DNA of 64,000 nucleotides. Source: Clostridia bacterium (GTDB taxonomy: Bacteria > Bacillota > Clostridia > TANB77 > CAG-508). Made by a program: the position numbers and the translations under genes. The notes beneath the pieces were generated by a model. That model made no database searches. It worked only from the letters and a program-made list of their open reading frames with translations, and was not told the DNA's origin. The stretch is from assembly GCA_022790575.1 (NCBI GenBank), contig JAAVXM010000025.1:410-64409 (forward strand), given 5' to 3'. The stretch's first letter is position 1. Each line of letters begins with the position of its first letter. Below are positions 39,577 to 52,189 of the stretch, piece by piece.

Positions 39577-40563
39577 TTATTTATCATTTAAAGGATTACT
39601 TTCAACAGCATTCCTAACTCTTTCATTATTTACATGTGTATATATTTCTGTAGTAGAAATACTTTGATGTCCCAAAAGTTCTTGTAAAGCTCTAATATCA
39701 ACATCTCCATACTGATACATTAATGTTGCTGCAGTGTGTCTTAATTTATGAACAGATAAATTTTTTGAATCCAATCCAGCTTGCTTAAGTTCCTTACTAA
39801 TAATATTTTGTACAGTTCTATTACTAATTCTTCTTTTTTGTTCACTTAGAAACAACGCTTTATCTGAGTTTTTAGCATCTTTTTTTATTAGATTTTGAGG
39901 TGGGCGAGAAGATATATAATCATTTAATGCCTTCATACAAGATTTATTTAAGTATATTGTACGTTCTTTGTTTCCTTTTCCTATTACAGTCATTTTACAT
40001 TCACTAAAATCAATATCATTAATATTAATTCCAACTAACTCTGATAATCTCATTCCACAATTCAGAAAAAGTGTAGTAATAGCAAAATCCCTTTTTGCAT
40101 TTCTATTTTCGTCATTGTCTGCAACCTCTAATAGTTTTCTGCTATCTTCTAGTGATAAATATTTAGGCATCCTTTTTTCTAATTTAGGAGTTTCTAAATT
40201 TTGGGCAGGATTAACTTCTAAAATCTTTTCTTTAATACTCAAAAACTTAAAAAATATTCTAATAGTAGAAATCTTTCTAGCTCTTGTTGAAGCTTTACTT
40301 TTATTATCAATTGCTAAATGCGATATATATGTGTGTATATCATTTAACGTTATTCTTTTCAAGTCTTTTACAGTAAATAGTCTTATATCGATTTCATCAT
40401 AATCTGTCTTATCTGTTAGTTTAAAGTGTATCATCATAAACTTTAAAAAATTAGATAAGTCGTAATTATATTCTTTTACTGAATTGGGCGATTTATTTAA
40501 TATTGTTATTGAATAATCTAAAAATGAATTTAGATAGTCTGGATTTTTCTCTTTTGATATCAT
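39577..40563 (-). CDS. tyrosine-type site-specific recombinase (XerC/XerD-like)
   Basis: N-terminal SAM-like domain (YLNSFLDYSITILNKSPNSVKEY). C-terminal catalytic R...HKLRHTAAT...LLGHQSISTTEIYTHV. ATG 40563 lies behind GGAGATGG. Confidence 0.85.
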   Translation of the reverse strand: MISKEKNPDYLNSFLDYSITILNKSPNSVKEYNYDLSNFLKFMMIHFKLTDKTDYDEIDIRLFTVKDLKRITLNDIHTYISHLAIDNKSKASTRARKISTIRIFFKFLSIKEKILEVNPAQNLETPKLEKRMPKYLSLEDSRKLLEVADNDENRNAKRDFAITTLFLNCGMRLSELVGININDIDFSECKMTVIGKGNKERTIYLNKSCMKALNDYISSRPPQNLIKKDAKNSDKALFLSEQKRRISNRTVQNIISKELKQAGLDSKNLSVHKLRHTAATLMYQYGDVDIRALQELLGHQSISTTEIYTHVNNERVRNAVESNPLNDK

Positions 40564-40706
40564 ATTCCATCTCCATATAATTAATATTTTATGATATAAT
40601 AACATTTAATGAGAAAAAAATAAAGGGTTTATATAAAATTTTTAGCATGACTATCTACTAAAAGCAGCACAACCTATTTAGGCTATGCTACTTTTAGTTT
40701 GTATAC

Positions 40707-41323: not shown

Positions 41324-42478
41324 ATGAATGTTTCAAAAGATATAATATATATAGGAGCAAATGATAAAGACATTGACTTATTTGAAAGTCAATATATTGT
41401 ACCAAATGGAATATCATATAATTCATATTTAATAAAAGATGAAAAAATTGCAATAATGGATACAATTGATAAAAGGAAAACTGAGGAATGGTTTAAAAAT
41501 TTAGAAAATGCATTAGAAGGAAGAAATCCAGATTATTTAGTTGTGTCACATTTAGAGCCAGACCATTCATACAATATACAAAATATAATTGAAAAATATC
41601 CTAATATAAAAATTGTTAGTACAAAGAAAAGCTTCGAATTCATACCACAATTTTTTAATACCTTAGACATAGATAACAGAAAAATTGAAGTAGGAGAAGG
41701 AGACATTTTAGATTTAGGAAAACACAAGTTGCAATTCATAATGGCTCCAATGGTGCATTGGCCAGAAGTTATGATGGAATATGAGCAAACAGAAAAAATA
41801 CTTTTTTCTGCAGATGGTTTTGGAAAATTTGGTTCATTAGATGTAGATGAAGAATGGGACTGTGAAGCTAGAAGATACTATTTTAATATTGTTGGGAAAT
41901 ATGGTATGCAAGTACAATCAGTATTAAAAAAAGCCGCTACTCTAGAAATAAAAAAAATCTGTCCACTACATGGACCTATTTTAAGTGAAAATCTAGAACA
42001 TTATATAAATTTATATGATATATGGAGTTCATACAAACCAGAAACAGAAGGAGTTTTTATAGCTTGTAGTTCAATATATGGAAACACAATGGAAGCAGCA
42101 CAAAACTTGAAATGTCTATTAGAAGAGAATGGTCAAAAGGTTGAATTAGCTGACTTATCACGAGAAGATTTTGCAGAATGTGTTGAAAATGCATTTAGAT
42201 ACAGTAAAATTGTTTTAGCATCAGCAACATATAATATGGGTATGTTCACATCAATGGAAAGATTTTTACATGAATTAAAAAATAAAAACTATCAAAATAG
42301 AACTATTGGTTTAATAGAAAATGGTACTTGGGCTCCAAATGCTGGTAAATGCATGAAAGAAATCTTATCTCAAATGAAAAACATTCAAATAATAGAACCA
42401 ATGGTTACAATAAAATCAACATTAGATGAAGCAAGTAGAAAACAATTAAAATCACTTGCAGATGAATTATTAAAATAA
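41324..42478 (+). CDS. flavodiiron (FprA-type, MBL-like + flavodoxin) protein
   Basis: Di-iron motif SHLEPDHS, an MBL-like fold, and a C-terminal flavodoxin-like domain. Confidence 0.8.
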   Translation: MNVSKDIIYIGANDKDIDLFESQYIVPNGISYNSYLIKDEKIAIMDTIDKRKTEEWFKNLENALEGRNPDYLVVSHLEPDHSYNIQNIIEKYPNIKIVSTKKSFEFIPQFFNTLDIDNRKIEVGEGDILDLGKHKLQFIMAPMVHWPEVMMEYEQTEKILFSADGFGKFGSLDVDEEWDCEARRYYFNIVGKYGMQVQSVLKKAATLEIKKICPLHGPILSENLEHYINLYDIWSSYKPETEGVFIACSSIYGNTMEAAQNLKCLLEENGQKVELADLSREDFAECVENAFRYSKIVLASATYNMGMFTSMERFLHELKNKNYQNRTIGLIENGTWAPNAGKCMKEILSQMKNIQIIEPMVTIKSTLDEASRKQLKSLADELLK

Positions 42479-42534
42479 GAATATAATTGAAATATTTCAA
42501 TTTATATAAAAGAGTTATGGGAGGAGGAAAAGTC

Positions 42535-42672
42535 ATGAAATATAGATGTACAGTTTGTGGATATATTTATGATGAAACAGAAGAAGGAGTAAAATTTGAA
42601 GAATTACCAGAAGAATGGGTATGCCCATTATGTGGTGTTGGTAAAGACATGTTTGAAAAAGTAGAAGAATAA
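42535..42672 (+). CDS. rubredoxin
   Basis: [14 protein letters not shown]...[13 protein letters not shown] has two CxxC pairs. ATG 42535 lies behind GGGAGGAGG. Confidence 0.9.
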
Positions 42673-42677
42673 TATAT

Positions 42678-43358
42678 ATGATTACAAAACGAGGTTTAGG
42701 GATGGATAAATTAGATATAGATAAAAAAGAACTAATAAATGAAATTATAATTATATTTTGGGTTTTTATAATAGGAAGTGTATTAGGATATGTATATGAA
42801 ATGATAGTTGTACTATTTCAAAAAGGATTTTTTGAATCAAGACAAGGGCTAATATATGGTCCTTTTACTCCAGTATATGGAATAGGAGGAATTGTTTATT
42901 ATCTTGCATTTAAAATTATAAAAACACGAAATAAAGGTTTAGTATTTATACTAACTATGATATTAGGAGGAGTAACAGAATATTTAGCTTCTTATATTCA
43001 GGAAAAAGCTTTTGGAACAATATCATGGGATTATTCTAATTTATTATTTAATATAAATGGAAGAACAAGTTTATTGCATTGTTCTTATTGGGGAATTGCA
43101 GGAATTTTATATGTTTGCTATATTGAACCACTAATTAAAAAAGTGAAATCACATATAAATTCAGTTTCCTTAAAAATTGCCTTTTCTATACTTTTCACAT
43201 TTATGACATTCAACATATTAATTTCTTGTGCTGCAGCACAGAGGCAAGAAGAAAGAAGGAATAGTATAGAGTCTGATAGTAAATTTGATATGTTCTTAGA
43301 TAAATATTATCCAGATGAGTATATGGATAAAGTGTATGCAAATAAAAAAAATATGTAA
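42678..43358 (+). CDS. membrane protein, PF06541-like ('putative ABC-transporter type IV'), paralog of 16855-17709
   Basis: GSVLGYVYEMIV...GLIYGPFTPVYGIGG...WDYSNLLFNINGRTSL parallels the other copy (WDYSTKKFNINGRICL). Confidence 0.6.
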   Translation: MITKRGLGMDKLDIDKKELINEIIIIFWVFIIGSVLGYVYEMIVVLFQKGFFESRQGLIYGPFTPVYGIGGIVYYLAFKIIKTRNKGLVFILTMILGGVTEYLASYIQEKAFGTISWDYSNLLFNINGRTSLLHCSYWGIAGILYVCYIEPLIKKVKSHINSVSLKIAFSILFTFMTFNILISCAAAQRQEERRNSIESDSKFDMFLDKYYPDEYMDKVYANKKNM

Positions 43359-43482
43359 TATTTTAAGTTACAAATAAATGTAAATATATTAAGGGAGTAA
43401 ATTATATTGATGATTACTTCCTTTTATGTTATAATCCATTTATCATTAAAAAGAGAATAATGCAAAAATGAAGGGAATTGTT

Positions 43483-44685
43483 ATGAAAATAATTATACAT
43501 AGGGGAACAAATCAAATAGGAGGATGTATCACTGAAATTATTTCAGAAGCTGGTACTAGAATTATTATAGATATAGGTTCAAACTTACCAAATGCAGAAG
43601 GCAAAAAGAGTAAAGAAATAGAATTACAGGGGCTAACAAAAGGTAAAGCAAAATACGATGCCATATTTATTACTCATTATCATGGAGACCATATTGGACT
43701 ATATAATAAAATATTACACCAAATTCCAATTTATATAGGTGAAACAACAAAAGAAATTTTTAAACTACTACAAAATAAGCTATATAAGATTGATTTAGTA
43801 GAAAAGAAAGACTTAGAAAAAATAAATAGCTTCAATACTTTTAAGATACCTGGTAAAATACAAATAAAGGATATTACAATCACACCTATTGCTGTTGACC
43901 ATTCCGCTTTTGATGCATATATGTTTTTGATAGAATGTGATGGCAAAAAGCTTTTACATACAGGAGATTTCAGAACACATGGTCAAAGAGGAAATGCAGT
44001 TATTAGAGCACTTACAAAATATGTAGGAAAAGTAAATTGTCTTATCTGTGAAGGTACAACATTATCTAGAGAAAAAGAGCCTGTATTATCTGAAGTGCAG
44101 TTACAACAAAAAGCAGAAAAAATATTTAAAAGTAATAAATTTAATTTCGTGTTATGTAGTAGTACCAATATTGATAGAATAGCAGCTCTGCATAAAGCAG
44201 CTATTAAGTCAAACAAAATGTTTATTTGTGATAAATACCAAAAAAGCGTATTAGACTATATAGATAGTATCTCAAGAAGTAGTCTTTATAAATTTGATTC
44301 TAGCCGAGATACAAAAGTCTACTATTATGAAAATAATTTAATTAGTACAATGACAGAATATGGATTTGTTATGTTAATAAGAGCTAATAGACTATCCAAA
44401 ACCATTCTTAATAAATTTCCCAAAAGTACATTTATATATTCAGAATGGCTAGGATATTTAAAAAATGATAATGAAGAATATAAAAAAATTCAGGAAATTG
44501 TACCAAATGACTATATATATTTACATACAAGTGGACATGCTAGTCCAGAAGCAATAAAAAAAGTTATTGAAGTTACTAGCCCAGACATTGTTATACCAAT
44601 ACATACAGATGAGAAAGGAAATATTAATAAACTAACAAATAAGGCAAAATTATTAGAAGATGGAGAAGAATTTATTATAAATTAA
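43483..44685 (+). CDS. metallo-beta-lactamase fold nuclease of the beta-CASP (RNase J/CPSF/Artemis-like) type
   Basis: MBL motifs: IIDIG, THYHGDH, VDHS, HTGDF. Then CEGT, LHTSGHAS and IPIHT, which fit beta-CASP motifs A, B and C. ATG 43483 lies behind GAAGGGA. An extended -10 tgttataat lies upstream (43426-43434). Confidence 0.7.
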   Translation: MKIIIHRGTNQIGGCITEIISEAGTRIIIDIGSNLPNAEGKKSKEIELQGLTKGKAKYDAIFITHYHGDHIGLYNKILHQIPIYIGETTKEIFKLLQNKLYKIDLVEKKDLEKINSFNTFKIPGKIQIKDITITPIAVDHSAFDAYMFLIECDGKKLLHTGDFRTHGQRGNAVIRALTKYVGKVNCLICEGTTLSREKEPVLSEVQLQQKAEKIFKSNKFNFVLCSSTNIDRIAALHKAAIKSNKMFICDKYQKSVLDYIDSISRSSLYKFDSSRDTKVYYYENNLISTMTEYGFVMLIRANRLSKTILNKFPKSTFIYSEWLGYLKNDNEEYKKIQEIVPNDYIYLHTSGHASPEAIKKVIEVTSPDIVIPIHTDEKGNINKLTNKAKLLEDGEEFIIN

Positions 44686-44696
44686 AGGAGTATATA

Positions 44697-45881
44697 ATGA
44701 GAAAATTAAATCAAAAATTTGAAGATATGTTTAAAAATGAATATAATGGAATAATCCAGTATGTAAAAAAAAATGATAAGGTATTTTTAGGAATAAGACA
44801 CAACTATATTAATTTATATGTTGATGGAGGAAGTTTTTTAAAACTTACATATCATCCAAAATTAAATTGTTGTATAGGAGGAGTTGACAATAAATATTTT
44901 GTTAATGGAATAAAGATGCCAAAAGGTTTAGAAGCAATAAATAATAAAGTAATAGATAATATTCAAAATTGGCTAGACTTATTTGATGAACTAATATTAG
45001 CAATTCAAGCATACCAAAGAGGAGATTGGGGAGAAGAAAAAAGCAAAAAAATAGTAAAAAGAGAAAAGATTATTCAACAAAAATTAGTAAAAGAATTCAA
45101 CCAAAACTCAGATTACTTTGCATATGATATTGAATACTCAATGAAAGGAGTAAATGACTATATTTTAGATTCCAATAAAAACAAAATAAAAATGAAAAAT
45201 GGTACATATAGAACAAAATCATTAGGAAGAGCAGATATAATGTTAATAGGGAAACCAATTAATAATAAAATAAAAATATATTGTATGGAAGTTAAAGAAG
45301 GTTTAGGTGCATTTGGTGGAGTTTTACCCAATATATCAAAACAATCATCTGCTCCAAGTTTTGGAAGTGGAATAGCAGGTCATTTAAAAAACAATGTTGC
45401 AGTTATAAGTTCTGCAAGAACTGGGATTGCCTATAAAGCTAAAGACAATGCTGTTGAATACAAAATAAAAGAAACTTTAATTGAAGAAATAAAATATGCT
45501 TTACATTTTTATAATAGATTTGATTTATTAAAAAATACTAACTTCAAAAATCTAACAGATAAAGAAATTGATGGAATAAAACTATGTGACAAAAAAGATG
45601 CTGTAGAATTAGTCTTTTTCCTTGGGAACTATACAGATAGAACACCAGGTTGTTTTGAAAAATATTTAGGTATAAATTTAGCGCCTGATTTATGTTCAGC
45701 ATACTCTGTAAAGAATTTGTTAGACAATAAAAAGAAAAATGAGATAAATTTAGATTATATAAAAACAGAGGAATTGTTTGATTTTAAAGTATTAAAAACG
45801 GCAAAGAATTGTTTTGATAGTAATTTCGATTTAGATATTGAACATTATGATACTATTCATAAAGAAGAATTCAAAAAATAA
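44697..45881 (+). CDS. 394-aa hypothetical protein with a PD-(D/E)xK-like core (possibly Shedu/DUF4263-like; unverified)
   Basis: GRADIMLIG...IKIYCMEVKEG fits D...(D/E)xK spacing, preceded by acidic helices. The start lies 11 nt after the MBL gene stop, behind AAAGGAG. Confidence 0.55.
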   Translation: MRKLNQKFEDMFKNEYNGIIQYVKKNDKVFLGIRHNYINLYVDGGSFLKLTYHPKLNCCIGGVDNKYFVNGIKMPKGLEAINNKVIDNIQNWLDLFDELILAIQAYQRGDWGEEKSKKIVKREKIIQQKLVKEFNQNSDYFAYDIEYSMKGVNDYILDSNKNKIKMKNGTYRTKSLGRADIMLIGKPINNKIKIYCMEVKEGLGAFGGVLPNISKQSSAPSFGSGIAGHLKNNVAVISSARTGIAYKAKDNAVEYKIKETLIEEIKYALHFYNRFDLLKNTNFKNLTDKEIDGIKLCDKKDAVELVFFLGNYTDRTPGCFEKYLGINLAPDLCSAYSVKNLLDNKKKNEINLDYIKTEELFDFKVLKTAKNCFDSNFDLDIEHYDTIHKEEFKK

Positions 45882-45895
45882 TAAGGAGCAAACAT

Positions 45896-47794
45896 ATGTT
45901 ACAAAAAGAAATAAAAAAACAAATCATACCAACTTTAGTTAATTTAAATGAACTATTAAATTCACAAAAAAGATACTTTGTCCCAATATATCAAAGACCA
46001 TATGATTGGGATGAATGGAATATTGCCAAATTGATTGAAACATTAAGCAAACTAAATGAAGAGAAAAGATACGTTTTTTTAGGAAATATGGAATTTAGAG
46101 AAGAAGAAAATATGCAACAAATTATAGATGGACAGCAAAGAATAACAACACTATTAATGTTATTAAATTATTTGAATTCAGAGGCATATTCAGACAATAT
46201 AATAAAAGAAATGTTAAAAATAAAGGCACAGGGTGAAAATGGTAATGGTACTATAATTGATGACCAATATAAATTTGAAGAATTTATTAGAAACAAAGAA
46301 TTCAGTTCAAAAGAATTAGCTGAATTAGAAGGTTATTCTAATGCTAGATTAAGAAAAGAAAAAACAAGGAATTTCAAAAATTCTAATGTTTATAGGCTTA
46401 ACTATCATTATATAAAAACCAGCTTAAAAAATATAAACATTATAACTAAAGAGCAAAAGCAAAAATTCGCCACAAATATTTTAAATAATACTTATGTTGT
46501 AACTATAAATTTAAAGCAAGATATACAAGAAAGTGAAGCAATAGATATATTTGATGCAATCAATACAACTGGAAAGCCCTTAAGTATAAAAGACATATTT
46601 AAAATAAAAATGTATGAATACAGTAAAAACAGAGGAAAAAACAATCCAGATAAAGTAATTCAAAGTATTAACAAGTTATATAATAAAATAGAAGAAAAAA
46701 ATAGTCAAATTGTTAATAATGAATCTCTTATTAGAGAAGAAGAATCAACAGGCAAGTCTGAATATAATGAAATTAACATGATATCTGAAACATTTTCTCA
46801 AGATGATATTTTAAAGGTATATAAATTCATACTTATTTCAAGAGTAGTTAATAATAAAAATAAAGAAGAAAGAGCCAATTATAAAAGTGAGTTGTTTAAT
46901 ATGTCAAATGACAACTTTTACAATAAATTGTTCCTTCAAATATTAGATAAAAATTCAAAAAAGCAATTTGAGGGATTTGAAAAACAAGAAATTGATGTAC
47001 AAGAATTACAAGATATACATGAAGCATATGCAAATTTAGCAGATATAGTATTAAATTTAGAAAACATAGATGCAGAAACATATTTTGCATATAAGATGTT
47101 AAAAGGATATACTAGATATTCATGGGCTTATAGGTTTTTACCAGTTTTGTTTTTATGGAGATTCAAAAAAATAGACACTAACTTTAATTGTTTTGTAATA
47201 AATATCAGCAAAATATTTGAATATTATACTATTACAAAAAAGCAAGTTATAAATTATGTTAAAACATTTATAAATGATATAATAATTCAAATTGTGAACC
47301 CAGACTCAAGTCCAAAAGAAATAAATAAACAAATAAAAGATGAATTAAAGAAGTGTAGTAGAAAAATACTTCATAACGAATTACAAGGAGAAGTATCAAA
47401 CACTTGGTGGAAAAAGAACATATCTTGTTTGATTTTAGCCAAAAACGCTGAGAAAAAGTGTGAAAATGAGAATAATCAAAAATTATTAAAAAGATATCAA
47501 AGATTATTTACAAGAAAATTTGATATAGAACATATTTGTGCAACTGGTAATGATGATAAAAGGTTTAGAGGAAACAAAAATGCTATTGGAAATTTAATGC
47601 TTTTAGAATATTCAATAAATAGAAATATAAAAAATGATGATATAGAAAAGAAAATATTAAAATATACTCAATCAAAATTTGAAATTGTTAAAAATGAAGT
47701 TTTGCTTTTAAATATGGGGCTTGAAAACTATTATAAAAATTATGAAATGCGTCAAATCGATAAGATAGCAGAAATAGAAGCATATTTTGATTAG
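45896..47794 (+). CDS. DUF262 + DUF1524 (His-Me finger) protein, GmrSD/BrxU-like type IV restriction enzyme family
   Basis: N-terminal YFVPIYQRPYDW and IIDGQQRITTL (DUF262/ParB-like NTPase). C-terminal FDIEHICATG...IGNLMLLEYSINRNIKN (DUF1524 HNH-like). Confidence 0.8.
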   Translation: MLQKEIKKQIIPTLVNLNELLNSQKRYFVPIYQRPYDWDEWNIAKLIETLSKLNEEKRYVFLGNMEFREEENMQQIIDGQQRITTLLMLLNYLNSEAYSDNIIKEMLKIKAQGENGNGTIIDDQYKFEEFIRNKEFSSKELAELEGYSNARLRKEKTRNFKNSNVYRLNYHYIKTSLKNINIITKEQKQKFATNILNNTYVVTINLKQDIQESEAIDIFDAINTTGKPLSIKDIFKIKMYEYSKNRGKNNPDKVIQSINKLYNKIEEKNSQIVNNESLIREEESTGKSEYNEINMISETFSQDDILKVYKFILISRVVNNKNKEERANYKSELFNMSNDNFYNKLFLQILDKNSKKQFEGFEKQEIDVQELQDIHEAYANLADIVLNLENIDAETYFAYKMLKGYTRYSWAYRFLPVLFLWRFKKIDTNFNCFVINISKIFEYYTITKKQVINYVKTFINDIIIQIVNPDSSPKEINKQIKDELKKCSRKILHNELQGEVSNTWWKKNISCLILAKNAEKKCENENNQKLLKRYQRLFTRKFDIEHICATGNDDKRFRGNKNAIGNLMLLEYSINRNIKNDDIEKKILKYTQSKFEIVKNEVLLLNMGLENYYKNYEMRQIDKIAEIEAYFD

Positions 47795-47813
47795 TAAAAA
47801 GGAGAATAATAAA

Positions 47814-48809
47814 ATGGATTTATATGAGAAAAATGGAAATGTACTATACATATTAAATGTGTTAAAAAAATATAGTGATGAAGAACATATGGTCTCAGTG
47901 ACAGAAATTCAAAGAAAAATCAAGGAGATATATGATGTACAAATTGATACAAGAACAATCAGAAGAAATATAAATCTTTTAAAATATAAGTTAAATTATG
48001 ACATAAGTACAAGAGAAGAAAATGGAAAAGGGTATTATATTAATAGAGACCCTGATACGGATTTTGAACCTGGAGAAATAAGAGCCATAATTGATAATTT
48101 TAGTTATGCAAATTATATTGTCCCAAGAGTTGCTAAAGACATAATTGAAAAATGTAAAAACATTCAAAGTGTATATGAAAATGAAAAACTAAAAGATTAT
48201 CAAATATATGCAAATGATTCAAAAACAGAAAATGTAGAGGTAATTAAGAATATAGAGGATATCACAAATAGCATATATAACAATAATAAAATAAAATTTG
48301 AATATTGGAAATACATAATCACAAATAAACTAGAAAAAAAGATAGTAAGTTCTCCAACAGTTTCTCCATATGCGATTATATATAATAAGCAAGAGTTTTA
48401 TCTAATTGGTATAAAAGAAGGGCAACAAAACTTTTATAATTATAGATTAGATAGAATAAAAAATATAAAAATTCTTAATGAAAAAATCTCAATAAAAAAG
48501 AAAAAAAGCGAAGTACAAGAGTTTGCCGAATCTTCAGTTGAGATGTATGGAGGCAAGAAAGAGGAAGTTGAAGCAATTTGCAATATTAGACTATTAGATG
48601 CTATTTTCGATATATTTGGCAGAAATGTTACTATTGAAAAAATATCTGGAGATGATAATAACTTTAAATTAATTGTTGATACAAATCCTTTAGGTTTTAG
48701 AATGTGGGCTATGAGAAATATAGATTTGGTTGAAGTAAAAAGACCATTATCTCTTAGAGAAGAAATGAGAAAAATTATAAAAGAAGCGGCAAATAAATAT
48801 AACCAATAA
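47814..48809 (+). CDS. HTH + WYL domain transcriptional regulator
   Basis: N-terminal wHTH (MVSVTEIQRKIKE...IDTRTIRRNINLL). Central WYL-type segment (EFYLIGIKEG..NFYNYRLDRIKNIKIL). ATG 47814 lies behind AAAGGAGA, 19 nt after the previous stop. Confidence 0.8.
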   Translation: MDLYEKNGNVLYILNVLKKYSDEEHMVSVTEIQRKIKEIYDVQIDTRTIRRNINLLKYKLNYDISTREENGKGYYINRDPDTDFEPGEIRAIIDNFSYANYIVPRVAKDIIEKCKNIQSVYENEKLKDYQIYANDSKTENVEVIKNIEDITNSIYNNNKIKFEYWKYIITNKLEKKIVSSPTVSPYAIIYNKQEFYLIGIKEGQQNFYNYRLDRIKNIKILNEKISIKKKKSEVQEFAESSVEMYGGKKEEVEAICNIRLLDAIFDIFGRNVTIEKISGDDNNFKLIVDTNPLGFRMWAMRNIDLVEVKRPLSLREEMRKIIKEAANKYNQ

Positions 48810-48838
48810 AATATATAATAGAAATGGAAATATAATAT

Positions 48839-49747
48839 ATGATAGATATAGAAGCAATTATTAAAGAATTTATAGAAGGTACTTACAATAATACAGATTA
48901 TCCTACAAAATATTCTGTATGTGAATCATTAAAAAACAGAGGAAAATACTCACAATATATATACAATGAATTTAGTTTACAACATGAACTAGGAAATTAT
49001 TTAAGATACAAGTTAAATAAAGAGACAAATGGAAATTTTGAATATTTTGTTATATTTGAATATAATATTAATGAATTAATAGACAATAACTCAAAGATTG
49101 ATACTTGTAAAAGAGAAATTGATATTTTAATTATCAAATACAATACCAAAAAAGGGTGTACAGAAAAAAAGTATGCAATAGAATTAAAATATCTAAAAAA
49201 TGAGGCATATCCATATAGAATGTTTCAATGTATAAAAGATATGAGGTTTATGAATGACGTTTTAGAAGCAGGTATTGATGAGTCATATTGTGTAGTAGTA
49301 ACTGAAAACAGAGGTTTTTATGAAAGTACAAGTGAAAAGAACAAACATTTACACGAAAATAAAAAATTATTATCGGCTTATAAAAACTATGAAAAATCTC
49401 TAAATGAAGAAAAGGAAAGACTGTTAAAAAATCTAGGAAAAAATAATAAGGAACTTAAAAAAATTAACAAGCAAATAGAAATGGTAGAAGAAATAATAAA
49501 TGCAAATAATAAAGATTGTTTTCCTATAATTTACAAGTATTTTCGAGAATCAAATTGTGTATGGGAACGAGGAAAATATATTTATAGTAACTTAATAAAT
49601 AAGTTAGACATAATTGATATAAATGATTTTAACAAAAAAATGAAGTTTGAATGGTATTCTGTTAATAAAGAAGACATAAATGAGACAAATAAATATTATA
49701 TTTTAAAGTTTGAAAAAAAACATCACAATGCAATACGTGACCACTGA
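48839..49747 (+). CDS. 302-aa hypothetical protein with a PD-(D/E)xK-like core and a coiled-coil segment
   Basis: SLQHELGNYL...KREIDILII...KYAIELKYLKN...QCIKD fits an E...D...ExK...Q pattern. Lys/Glu-rich coiled coil around residues 170-210. Confidence 0.5.
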   Translation: MIDIEAIIKEFIEGTYNNTDYPTKYSVCESLKNRGKYSQYIYNEFSLQHELGNYLRYKLNKETNGNFEYFVIFEYNINELIDNNSKIDTCKREIDILIIKYNTKKGCTEKKYAIELKYLKNEAYPYRMFQCIKDMRFMNDVLEAGIDESYCVVVTENRGFYESTSEKNKHLHENKKLLSAYKNYEKSLNEEKERLLKNLGKNNKELKKINKQIEMVEEIINANNKDCFPIIYKYFRESNCVWERGKYIYSNLINKLDIIDINDFNKKMKFEWYSVNKEDINETNKYYILKFEKKHHNAIRDH

Positions 49748-49753
49748 TATTTT

Positions 49754-49806
49754 AATCTTAATTCTTATAATGTATAATAAAAACACTATAAGAATTAAGA
49801 TTTTTT
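49754..49806 (+). terminator. strong intrinsic terminator closing the five-gene operon
   Basis: Perfect 16-nt arms aatcttaattcttata (49754-49769) / tataagaattaagatt (49787-49802) plus a T-run. Confidence 0.75.
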
Positions 49807-49826
49807 ATATAAGGAGGAAATAAAAG

Positions 49827-51416
49827 ATGTTAAATAATTACAAATTAGATGCAGAAGATGAGGAAATTTTAAATGAACTAGATAATTTATGTGGAGTTGT
49901 TCAAAACAAAGATGTACTAAAGGATATAATTACATATATTAAATTAAGGCAAAATGATGAACTAGATTTTGGGAATTACAATATAATTATACGAAATGAC
50001 TCTTCTTACAATTTATTAAATGACCTTATAAGAGTTTGTGCTAAAATATTTGTGAAATATGAAATTATTTCAAATGATAGGATATGTTGTTTAGATAAAA
50101 TAATAAATAGCAGAAGAAGTTGTCCTTTTGATAAAATATCTGGAATTGAAGAAAGTATCATTGTAATTAATGACAGGAAATTACACATCGAATATACAGA
50201 TGAAATTGATAATTTGAGTAGAATTATGAAGCAATTTAAAGATAAAATATTTATTTTTGAGGACACGAATTATTGTGAAGGAGAAACAGATGCAGAACTT
50301 GGTCCTCTTGTAAATTGGAGATTAACAATTGAAAAGATATCATTAGAGGATAAACTAATGTATTGTAGAAATAGGTTAGATGAGAATAATTTAAAATATA
50401 AAAAGCAAGATATAAAAGAATTTGTAGATGTACCATTTTGGATGTTAAAAAACATGATAAATAAACTTATAATTGAATGTAAAAGTGGAAGTATCAATTT
50501 AATTAATAAGCAAATGCTTAACAAGAATAAACAAACATTTACAAAAAGCAATTCTAATCATCGTTCTAGAAATAGAAATAAAAAGGCTGATAAAAGTGCA
50601 AAAGAGGAATTGAATGGTTTAATTGGACTTGAGGGCATCAAAATGCAAATGGATAAAATTCTCAACTATGTAAAATTAAATAAGGAGAGAGGCAAAATGC
50701 CTACATTACATATGTGTTTTACAGGTAATCCTGGAACAGGAAAGACTAGCATTGCTAGAATAATTGGGAAGTTATTTGAACAAGAAAACATTTTAAGTGG
50801 AAGTGGTGATTTTGTTGAGATTCATGGACGAGACTTAGTAGCTAAATATGTAGGGTGGACTGCACAGAAAGTTCATAATACAGTCGAAAAAGCTATTGGA
50901 GGAGTTTTATTTATAGATGAAGCATATAGTTTGGTTTCTGATACAAAAGGTGGATTTGAGGATGAAGCTATTGCAACATTGATAAAAGAAATGGAAGACC
51001 ATAGAGATGAAATCTGTATAATACTTGCAGGTTATACTAATGAAATGGAAAATTTAATTAGGCAGAATCCAGGTTTTGAAAGTAGAATACAATTTACAGT
51101 TGAATTTCCAGATTATAATGAAAATGAATTACTAGAGATATTTACAGAATTGTGCAAGAAAGAACACTATAGGTTGTCAGAGACAGGAAAAGATATTCTA
51201 ATAAATCATTTTGCTATTGCCAAAAGTAAAGAAGCTTTTGGTAATGGAAGATATGTAAGAAATATATTTGAAAAAGTAAAATTTGAACAAGCAGACAGAA
51301 TAATTAGAACTAGTAGTAAATCAGTAAACACAATTAATAAAACTGATATTGAATGTGCACTTAAATCTTTTACATTAGATATAAAAGAAAAGAGAAAAAT
51401 CGGTTTTTGTGGTTAA
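49827..51416 (+). CDS. AAA+ ATPase of the CbbX/SpoVK type with a ~270-aa N-terminal extension
   Basis: Walker A GNPGTGKTS, Walker B VLFIDEAYSL, then ILAGY and GFESRI, typical of the CbbX/SpoVK/EccA clade. The N-terminal half lacks a P-loop. Confidence 0.8.
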   Translation: MLNNYKLDAEDEEILNELDNLCGVVQNKDVLKDIITYIKLRQNDELDFGNYNIIIRNDSSYNLLNDLIRVCAKIFVKYEIISNDRICCLDKIINSRRSCPFDKISGIEESIIVINDRKLHIEYTDEIDNLSRIMKQFKDKIFIFEDTNYCEGETDAELGPLVNWRLTIEKISLEDKLMYCRNRLDENNLKYKKQDIKEFVDVPFWMLKNMINKLIIECKSGSINLINKQMLNKNKQTFTKSNSNHRSRNRNKKADKSAKEELNGLIGLEGIKMQMDKILNYVKLNKERGKMPTLHMCFTGNPGTGKTSIARIIGKLFEQENILSGSGDFVEIHGRDLVAKYVGWTAQKVHNTVEKAIGGVLFIDEAYSLVSDTKGGFEDEAIATLIKEMEDHRDEICIILAGYTNEMENLIRQNPGFESRIQFTVEFPDYNENELLEIFTELCKKEHYRLSETGKDILINHFAIAKSKEAFGNGRYVRNIFEKVKFEQADRIIRTSSKSVNTINKTDIECALKSFTLDIKEKRKIGFCG

Positions 51417-51426
51417 AGAAATAAGG

Positions 51427-51453
51427 AATCTAGATGAAAAATCTAGATTTTTT
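51427..51453 (+). terminator. intrinsic terminator after the AAA+ gene
   Basis: aatctagat / atctagatt stem followed by a T-run. Confidence 0.65.
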
Positions 51454-51462
51454 ATTTTTGTA

Positions 51463-51519
51463 TTGACACAGTGTCAGAAAAGTGATATAAAATAAATATC
51501 TGACACAGCGTCAGATATG
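51463..51519 (+). promoter_or_regulatory. promoter with two palindromic operators in front of the TetR gene
   Basis: TTGACA (51463-51468), 17 nt spacer, TATAAA (51486-51491). Palindrome tgacacAgtgtca at 51464-51476 overlaps the -35. A second palindrome atatctgac-acagc-gtcagatat lies at 51495-51517. Confidence 0.55.
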
Positions 51520-51574
51520 ACAGAGTATAAAAATATACAAGCAAATATATACTACAAGTAAAAGGAGGGTATAA

Positions 51575-52189
51575 ATGTCAAAAGAAACAACAGATTTAAG
51601 AAAAGAAGAAATTATAAGTGCATGTGAAGAACTATATGAAAATTGTAGTTTTAAAGATATAACAATAAAGCTTATAGGGGAAAAAACCTCATTATCAAGA
51701 CCATCTATATACAATTACTTTCAAACCAAAGAAGAGATATTTCTTGCATTGTTGAAAAGAGAATATGAAAAATGGATAGAAGATTTAGAAAAAATATATG
51801 TCAAAAACGAAAAGATGGAAAAAGAACAATTTGCAGATATATTAGCAAAAACAGTTGAGAAAAGAAAAAAGCTACTAAAATTACTATCTATGAATTTATA
51901 TGATATTGAAGAAAATAGTAGTGTAGACAGTTTGATAGACTTTAAAAAATCATATAATAGTGCAATAAAATTAGTAAAGAAATTATTAGATAAGTATTTT
52001 AAAGAAATGAATGAGGAAAATAAAAACGAATTCTTATTTTCATTTTTTCCATTAATGTTTGGACTTTATCCATATGCTTTTGCAACCAAAAAGCAAAAAA
52101 TAGCAATGGAAAAAGCAAATGTATTATATAAGGAATACACAATATATGAAATTGCGTACATGAGTATAAAAAAGCTATTAGTAGTATAA
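51575..52189 (+). CDS. TetR/AcrR family transcriptional regulator
   Basis: N-terminal HTH (ITIKLIGEKTSLSRPSIYNYFQTKEEIF) plus a helical C-terminal domain. Confidence 0.85.
   Translation: MSKETTDLRKEEIISACEELYENCSFKDITIKLIGEKTSLSRPSIYNYFQTKEEIFLALLKREYEKWIEDLEKIYVKNEKMEKEQFADILAKTVEKRKKLLKLLSMNLYDIEENSSVDSLIDFKKSYNSAIKLVKKLLDKYFKEMNEENKNEFLFSFFPLMFGLYPYAFATKKQKIAMEKANVLYKEYTIYEIAYMSIKKLLVV

Follow-up and report, generated by a model that had tools for sequence, protein, structure and literature searches.

In eukaryotic interstrand cross-link unhooking, incision by the restriction-endonuclease-fold nuclease XPF-ERCC1 provides the entry point for the beta-CASP 5'-3' exonuclease SNM1A. Among immune systems, the only beta-CASP effector found in the literature is Cas14 of type VII CRISPR-Cas, an RNase that is recruited by a targeting complex (PMC13069675). 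Metallo-beta-lactamase (MBL) nucleases of another kind, encoded by a separate gene beside a defence partner, are the DNA-degrading effectors of the trypsin-MBL modules, which comprise HamM with Hachiman, Avs, Lamassu and DRT (PMC12799240). These two, together with CoCoNuT neighbourhoods, were all that a search of the literature on beta-CASP/MBL defence pairs returned, and none of them matches the gene pair described here. This pair, a gene for a beta-CASP MBL protein followed by a gene for a 394-residue protein (the partner), was found in a 64,000-nucleotide stretch of DNA from a Clostridia bacterium (contig JAAVXM010000025.1, positions 410 to 64,409; referred to as the window), which is AT-rich, with a G+C content of ~25-30%. 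The first-pass annotation of the window had not recognised this two-gene composition as a described system, and neither PADLOC nor the literature was found to hold a match to it.

Sequence comparison identifies the pair as a mobile, patchily distributed, autonomous two-gene cassette, both products of which keep complete catalytic signatures. The best explanation, to which we assign a probability of roughly 0.45, is that it acts as an autonomous, mobile two-enzyme module on nucleic acid, most likely as an anti-phage or anti-plasmid defence cassette. The pair is made up of the following features:

43483..44685, + strand: MBL/beta-CASP gene, 400 aa, identified as an open reading frame (ORF) with Pfam, NCBIfam and PDB matches
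44686..44696, + strand: intergenic spacer of 11 nt, with an AGGAG ribosome-binding site at 44686-44690, 6 nt 5' of the partner ATG, read from the sequence
44697..45881, + strand: partner gene, 394 aa, of an uncharacterised superfamily

The 11-nt spacing and the ribosome-binding site before the partner start had been noted at first pass and were borne out. The longest ORF of the MBL gene comprises 405 codons from 43468, and the likely true start is 43483, because homologues begin MK/MQ-(I/V)-x-(I/V)-(H/Y)-(R/N)-G, that is, at the second Met, and because an AAGGGA lies 5' of the ATG at this position. Both ORFs are real genes and not chance readings, since relatives abound for both and the motif residues are kept across them.

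Conservation and autonomy of the pair

All six independent loci of the close partner family were found to have an MBL gene next door, the order being MBL-partner in two and partner-MBL in four of them. Among 80 metagenome loci found via the partner, 32 were informative, having at least 1.3 kb on both flanks, and in 22 of these an MBL gene of the same strand immediately precedes the partner gene; the two mostly overlap or are separated by 0 nt, which suggests translational coupling. Eight of the 13 loci found via the MBL carry a partner-family gene; the MBL neighbours in partner-less loci (351 aa in L008, 377 aa in L020 and 277 aa in L021; L and P numbers denote loci and proteins of our collection) were tested as hidden partner relatives and turned out to be unrelated. 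The two genes abut in a Mesorhizobium locus, and the 732-aa protein P0307 has MBL domains at residues 1-391, which continue seamlessly into partner-family sequence; its contig also carries a UDG and a DUF3987-domain gene. The neighbour co-occurrence check that had been proposed at the outset thus came out in favour of the pair: the two genes are neighbours at other loci too, in both possible orders, and seem to be fused in one protein.

The two genes do not diverge in step. The MBLs of L012 and L010 are 64-72% identical to the window MBL and adjoin very divergent partners that keep all catalytic residues; the L012 MBL is 72% identical and its partner barely alignable. In L004, the MBL is only 36% identical to that of the window and the partner is 47% identical. 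This incongruence points to modular exchange.

No third conserved gene was found in more than 3 of the 42 pair loci, which argues for two-gene autonomy. The first-pass annotation had left it between the effector part of an operon and an autonomous two-gene system, and the latter is supported by this result. The former would make the pair the effector part of a six-gene operon at 43.4-51.4 kb that needs GmrSD and/or the ATPase encoded there. Apart from the pair, the following features belong to this cluster:

43407..43435, + strand: promoter-like site (TTGATG, 17-nt spacer, TG-extended TATAAT), from a consensus scan
45896..47794, + strand: GmrSD-type (DUF262 + DUF1524) type IV restriction enzyme gene (Pfam GmrSD_N 6e-30, GmrSD_C 1e-8)
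47787..48809, + strand: WYL-domain (wHTH-WYL-WCX type) transcription regulator gene (Pfam WYL 4e-10)
48839-49747, + strand: 302-aa ORF with no family match
49827-51416, + strand: SpoVK/CbbX-like AAA+ ATPase gene, 529 aa, with an N-terminal extension of ~250 aa

The six genes share the + strand with gaps of at most 79 nt, the GmrSD gene beginning 14 nt 3' of the partner gene, and no terminator-like site was detected between them or anywhere on the + strand of 43000-52000, such scans being weak in AT-rich DNA. The promoter-like site is a possible operon promoter, a weak one going by the scan, which gives 89 such matches against a shuffled expectation of 72 in this AT-rich region. GmrSD homologues also adjoin the pair in two further Clostridia-type loci (L012 and L031), which makes three with the window, and their arrangement differs from that of the window. 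These observations would fit a larger unit, but GmrSD is absent from 39 of the 42 pair loci, the other four genes of the window cluster are likewise non-recurrent, and the two-gene insertions beside leuS or dtd as well as the proteobacterial plasmid loci are counter-examples, so that dependence on the six-gene operon is very unlikely. GmrSD is a recurrent, non-obligatory neighbour and not a core part of the system, and the WYL gene at 47787-48809 may be a regulator of the cluster and not a core part either. The adjacency of GmrSD and WYL genes could reflect a functional link or merely a shared island.

Several further observations concern the surroundings of the pair. The GmrSD genes of L012 and L031 come after a DUF7834 gene and a GmrSD_N fragment. 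The 302-aa ORF of the window cluster contains a string that looks like a D...ExK motif (EIDILIIKY...YAIELKYLKNE) and, going by this string, could form with the AAA+ ATPase a defence pair of its own within the cluster, a nuclease plus an ATPase. At 39577-40605 on the - strand, ~3 kb upstream of the cluster, there is a gene for a tyrosine recombinase (Phage_integrase). Between this gene and the cluster lie a rubredoxin-like ORF and a second, unrelated MBL-motif gene (41324-42672, + strand), whose translation, inspected by eye, appears to have flavodoxin-like C-terminal features.

Partner-family proteins were also identified beside (L019, 5001-7045) or fused to (P0377) a REase-ARP/PDDEXK_13 restriction-fold protein, and in Brachyspira the partner and REase-ARP adjoin an SMC_N/AAA_15/AAA_21 ATPase gene. 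The partner therefore looks like a module that can join more than one nuclease.

The two proteins

The first-pass annotation had read a full motif series in the MBL protein (HYHGDH, VDHS, HTGDF, CEGT, HTSGHAS and IPIHT) and had taken it for a nucleic-acid enzyme of the RNase J/CPSF type. All six strings are present, and the assignment was upheld by a motif-for-motif alignment with RNase J1 and by sub-threshold RNase J and RMMBL matches. In the 400-aa numbering, the catalytic residues are D30, H65-x-H67-x-D69-H70, H140 and D162, and the beta-CASP residues are E190 of motif A (CEGT), H352 of motif B (HTSGHAS) and H374 of motif C (IPIHT). All these residues are identical in 56 of 56 full-length homologues gathered from related loci, save for two alignment gaps at the motif-1 Asp; database relatives number more than 4500. 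RNase J1 aligns with the window protein at HxHxDH, at the His of motif 3 and the Asp of motif 4, and at beta-CASP motifs A, B and C, its own strings for the last three being CLLSDST, HTSGHGS and PIHGE. Pfam identified Lactamase_B_2 and Lactamase_B, and RMMBL remained sub-threshold with 18 bits against a cut-off of 21.6 bits; the NCBIfam RNase J models TIGR00649 / NF047419 were also matched below threshold, with 87.8 against 400 bits and 69.6 against 820. Sequence matches in the PDB were EF2904 (the best), RNase J1/J and CPSF73.

The identification of the MBL protein as a beta-CASP enzyme of the RNase J/CPSF73 type is solid at this level of comparison. It is not an RNase J orthologue: it falls short of the curated cut-offs, and it ends soon after motif C and so lacks the RNase J C-terminal domain. 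EF2904 (PDB 2az4) was considered as a functional guide and set aside as a different, probably metabolic, subfamily, because MBLs of equally low identity to the window protein (22.8%), in a record labelled as an E. coli plasmid and in Enterococcus phage records, are located inside an ABC-transporter operon.

The partner belongs to a family of which little is annotated. Among 5.8 billion proteins, 17 close relatives were identified, and a profile built from relatives retrieved 565 clusters from 1.84 billion representatives, most of them 300-350 aa in length; all named relatives are labelled "hypothetical protein". The partner matched nothing in Pfam (E values up to 10), NCBIfam, PADLOC or PHROGs, no Pfam family fits any of 61 relatives, and PADLOC gave only single chance-level matches for these. 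The strings GRADIMLIG and YCMEVKEG, on which a nuclease core had been proposed at first pass, are present. Conservation was read from sets of 61 and 100 diverse sequences. Invariant residues (window numbering) are R34, D144, D180, E198, K200 and H229, the D, the ExK and the H being invariant across both sets, and E123, Q127, Q128, N135, E146, R178 and G225 are near-invariant. Conservation is highest in the N-terminal domain, where R34, Y41 and Y67 are invariant or nearly so, and in the first helix and the first strand (profile positions 1-150 for most of the distant matches); beyond about residue 245 the sequence is variable.

AlphaFold2 models of the window partner (predicted local distance difference test, pLDDT, 91.8; predicted TM-score, pTM, 0.91) and of P0358, a 311-aa Mesorhizobium relative (pLDDT 95.1, pTM 0.92), have the same order of elements: helix (E123), strand (D144/E146), strand (D180), strand (E198-x-K200), helix (H229) and strand. 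In the window model, helix 122-137 carries E123, and strands 179-185 and 194-201 carry D180 and E198-x-K200, respectively. The predicted partner thus has an Asp strand, an ExK on the next strand and a preceding acidic helix, and the helix-strand order in the models is the canonical PD-(D/E)xK arrangement. Judging from these models, the partner is quite probably a PD-(D/E)xK-type nuclease, and we infer that its core residues form a metal-dependent active site of this type. Both proteins of the pair look catalytically competent as far as their residues allow a judgement. The N-terminal alpha/beta domain of the partner (about residues 1-110) gave weak Foldseek matches to frataxin/YdhG/YjbR-like proteins, with target-normalised TM-scores of ~0.45-0.5.

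Two variants of the partner were observed. In P0006 (672 aa), a close relative, the first ~85 residues are replaced by a TGS/P-loop (uridine-kinase-like) region, probably through a rearrangement or a chimeric gene call. In a Bacilli lineage of metagenome-assembled genomes represented by more than 40 contigs (L013, 8001-8030, on the same contig as L004), the partner gene begins ATG AGA AAA TTA AGT TGT GAT TTT TAG; its ninth codon is thus an in-frame TAG, which may mark a pseudogene or a recoding event, and the 338-aa product of the annotation is a truncated call.

Genomic setting and proposed function

The close partner family is present in only 4 of 185,579 species representatives. Plasmid-borne MBL homologues with an adjacent partner gene were found in Cereibacter, Rhizobium, Sphingomonas, Cupriavidus and Ochrobactrum, and one pair locus is located in a Tn3-family transposon region. 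Distant partner relatives were detected in only 2 of 2.9 million viral contigs, and a tblastn search with the window protein did not find the partner in phage and plasmid records; a phage origin was rejected on account of this near absence from viral contigs and phage records.

The neighbours of the pair include many genes of genetic conflict. One pair locus lies beside genes for an Eco57I-type methylase and a GIY-YIG nuclease, one Mesorhizobium locus beside WYL and SIR2 genes, and another locus beside Dcm, MutH-like and Abi_2 genes, while a solo partner gene (L017) is found beside PIN/MazE toxin-antitoxin pairs. A census of 145 neighbours, counted by raw occurrence, contained serine recombinases, NERD/UvrD, HipA, RhuM and the PADLOC candidates PDC-S05 and PDC-S10. 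WYL genes adjoin MBL homologues in five loci (the window, L012, L018, L020 and L021). Among the MBL homologues on plasmids, those of L020 (Prevotella plasmid pE2-28) and L022 (Cereibacter plasmid pORIO1) are followed, with a 4-nt overlap, by a metallophosphatase/metallophosphoesterase gene. The Prevotella MBL is ~100 aa longer and has no partner-family gene; upstream of it are a divergent WYL gene, a 3'-5' exonuclease gene and two DUF262 genes.

The recurrent WYL genes can be read in another way. By analogy with XPF-ERCC1 and SNM1A, the pair might be a DNA-repair or damage-processing module, in which an incision nuclease and a beta-CASP 5'-3' exonuclease would be induced via a regulator that senses single-stranded DNA. 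The WYL proteins DriD and CapW are described in the literature as sensing single-stranded DNA or DNA damage, and some loci lie among replication or housekeeping genes, L031 for example next to dnaE. The extremely patchy distribution, the plasmid and transposon-region locations, the reassorted subtypes of MBL and partner, the restriction-modification, toxin-antitoxin, SIR2 and Abi genes nearby, and the nonsense-mutated copy in one lineage are, taken together, typical of conflict genes and not of repair genes, and a repair role is accordingly considered quite unlikely.

For the preferred reading of the pair as a defence cassette, the following mechanism is proposed. The partner would be a metal-dependent endonuclease with a divergent PD-(D/E)xK-type site that recognises and cuts invading nucleic acid, and its restriction-fold chemistry would leave 5'-phosphate ends. 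The MBL, which resembles RNase J and hence a class of enzymes that enters at 5'-monophosphate ends, might then degrade the target in the 5'-3' direction or add endonucleolytic cuts. The two proteins probably act as a complex, and the neighbouring WYL regulator may control their expression. DNA is taken as a working guess for the target, with RNA as the alternative.

A number of observations weigh against this reading. The coupling of the two genes is frequent and not obligatory, since solo partner genes and partner-less MBL loci exist: ~30% of partner genes lack an MBL neighbour (10 of the 32 informative loci, and also L017), and 5 of the 13 loci ascertained via the MBL have no partner. The evidence for the P0307 fusion is a single Logan contig of 7.8 kb, in which a frameshift error might mimic a fused gene; we therefore take it as supportive only. 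Several loci are situated between housekeeping genes, the insertions next to leuS or dtd among them, WYL regulators also control DNA-damage responses according to published work, and neither protein matches any model of PADLOC-DB 2.0. At the level of the partner, PDB sequences gave no match to its single sequence or to two family profiles, no curated PD-(D/E)xK family profile of Pfam or NCBIfam was matched by it or by 60 relatives, and hhalign of the family profile against REase-ARP sequences was not significant (probability <1%). The Foldseek check for a nuclease fold that had been suggested at first pass was equally unrewarding: two partner models searched twice against the PDB and once against BFVD gave nothing below E=0.1, the best values being 0.2-0.3, and the weak matches included BsmI (E=0.29, probability 0.28), McrC (E=0.55, probability 0.11) and viral PD-(D/E)XK proteins (E 0.4-1.5). 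The PD-(D/E)xK fold of the partner is therefore not confirmed, as no profile or structure search gave a significant match. What stands of the restriction-endonuclease fold in the first-pass annotation is the placement of D180 and E198-x-K200 on consecutive predicted strands after a helix. Lastly, the motif C His and the RMMBL similarity of the MBL fit a DNA target poorly, a His at this position reportedly having been described by Callebaut et al. in 2002 as an RNA-type signature.

This last point leads to the possibility that the module targets RNA, the MBL acting on transcripts of the phage or the host in the manner of RNase J or Cas14, in abortive infection or transcript clearance, with the partner making the entry cut in RNA or recognising a trigger and recruiting or activating the RNase. 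In addition to motif C and RMMBL, RNase J1 and CPSF73 give the best alignments to the MBL, the one beta-CASP immune effector found in the literature, Cas14, is an RNase, and type III-A CRISPR systems reportedly recruit degradosome nucleases including RNase J (PMC6447361). Against this stand the D...ExK active site of the partner, which is typical of DNases, the restriction-endonuclease fold of its alternative companion REase-ARP/PDDEXK_13 and the DNA-directed nature of neighbours such as GmrSD and restriction-modification genes, all of which argue for DNA; moreover, no RNA-binding domain was detected. An RNA target is hence rated as unlikely.

The searches that failed to find a significant sequence or structure match of the partner to any nuclease also favour a view in which the 394-aa protein is not a nuclease at all, but a regulator, a sensor, an antitoxin-like inhibitor of a toxic beta-CASP nuclease or an enzyme with another substrate. 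Its stretch of highest conservation, from the N-terminal domain to the first helix and strand, might serve to bind a ligand. Nevertheless, the acidic, Lys and His residues that are invariant in 100 diverse sequences, with the D...ExK on adjacent predicted strands, point to catalysis; the partner often occurs without any MBL, unlike an antitoxin or a dedicated regulator, and REase-ARP, a different nuclease, is another of its companions, adjacent or fused. The chance that the partner is not a nuclease thus appears slim.

If the pair is a defence system as proposed, the beta-CASP clade of RNase J and CPSF73 joins the free-standing bacterial immune effectors, at least 565 sequence clusters that lack a domain model acquire a function, and a compact cassette of ~2.4 kb becomes available that is readily testable. 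The partner structure, confidently predicted yet unmatched, is worth solving whatever its role. The shuffling of subtypes and the pairing with REase-ARP point to a logic of "partner plus interchangeable nuclease". A more far-reaching and doubtful interpretation is that the partner founds an enzyme family, consisting of a frataxin/YjbR-like domain and a divergent nuclease core, and forms with the beta-CASP nuclease a widespread two-enzyme immune system, the first free-standing beta-CASP defence outside CRISPR, while also plugging into REase-ARP. Its range would take in Clostridia, Bacilli and Alpha- and Betaproteobacteria as well as plasmids of these bacteria and a transposon region.

Comparison with known systems

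Several described systems resemble the pair in part. RNase J and CPSF73 (PDB 3zq4, 6k6s and 2i7t) share with the window MBL the layout of MBL and beta-CASP domains and all catalytic motifs, including the motif C His. In contrast to RNase J, the window MBL is patchy and mobile rather than housekeeping, has no C-terminal dimerisation domain and is linked to a partner for which RNase J has no counterpart; the two enzymes are only ~25% identical.

Cas14 is likewise a beta-CASP immune effector. It depends on a separate targeting component, is RNA-guided and possesses extra domains for oligomerisation and Cascade binding (PMC13069675), whereas neither a CRISPR array nor Cas genes accompany the pair, in which the partner, one protein, has a putative active site of its own. 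At E<=0.01, the PDB sequence matches of the MBL did not include any Cas14 chain. The HamM-type MBLs of the trypsin-MBL modules are ComEC-like and are activated by a fused trypsin-like protease (PMC12799240); the window MBL is of the beta-CASP type and matches the ComEC model with only 16.5 bits. No protease domain was present in the window neighbours or among the 25 most frequent families of the neighbour census.

On the side of the partner, the likeness to Shedu (SduA, DUF4263) is only conceptual: Shedu consists of one defence nuclease of the PD-(D/E)xK type whose N-terminal domain varies. A Shedu/DUF4263-like identity, which had been suggested for the partner at first pass, found no support, as neither Pfam, which should include DUF4263, nor any PADLOC model, Shedu included, gave a match for the partner or for 60 relatives. 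REase-ARP/PDDEXK_13 (Pfam PF22558 and PF20796) takes the position of the MBL next to or fused to partner-family proteins. It shares with the partner core a look-alike motif (xDxxxx...IExKY), with no significant profile similarity, and is a different companion nuclease and not the family of the partner.

The division of labour proposed for the pair is the same as that between XPF-ERCC1 and SNM1A. These proteins are unrelated in sequence to those of the pair and serve a repair pathway, not a mobile cassette; motif C is a Val in SNM1A and a His in the window MBL. Nuclease-based defence cassettes as such are already known, and what is new is the conservation of this pair across many bacteria, plasmids and a transposon region.

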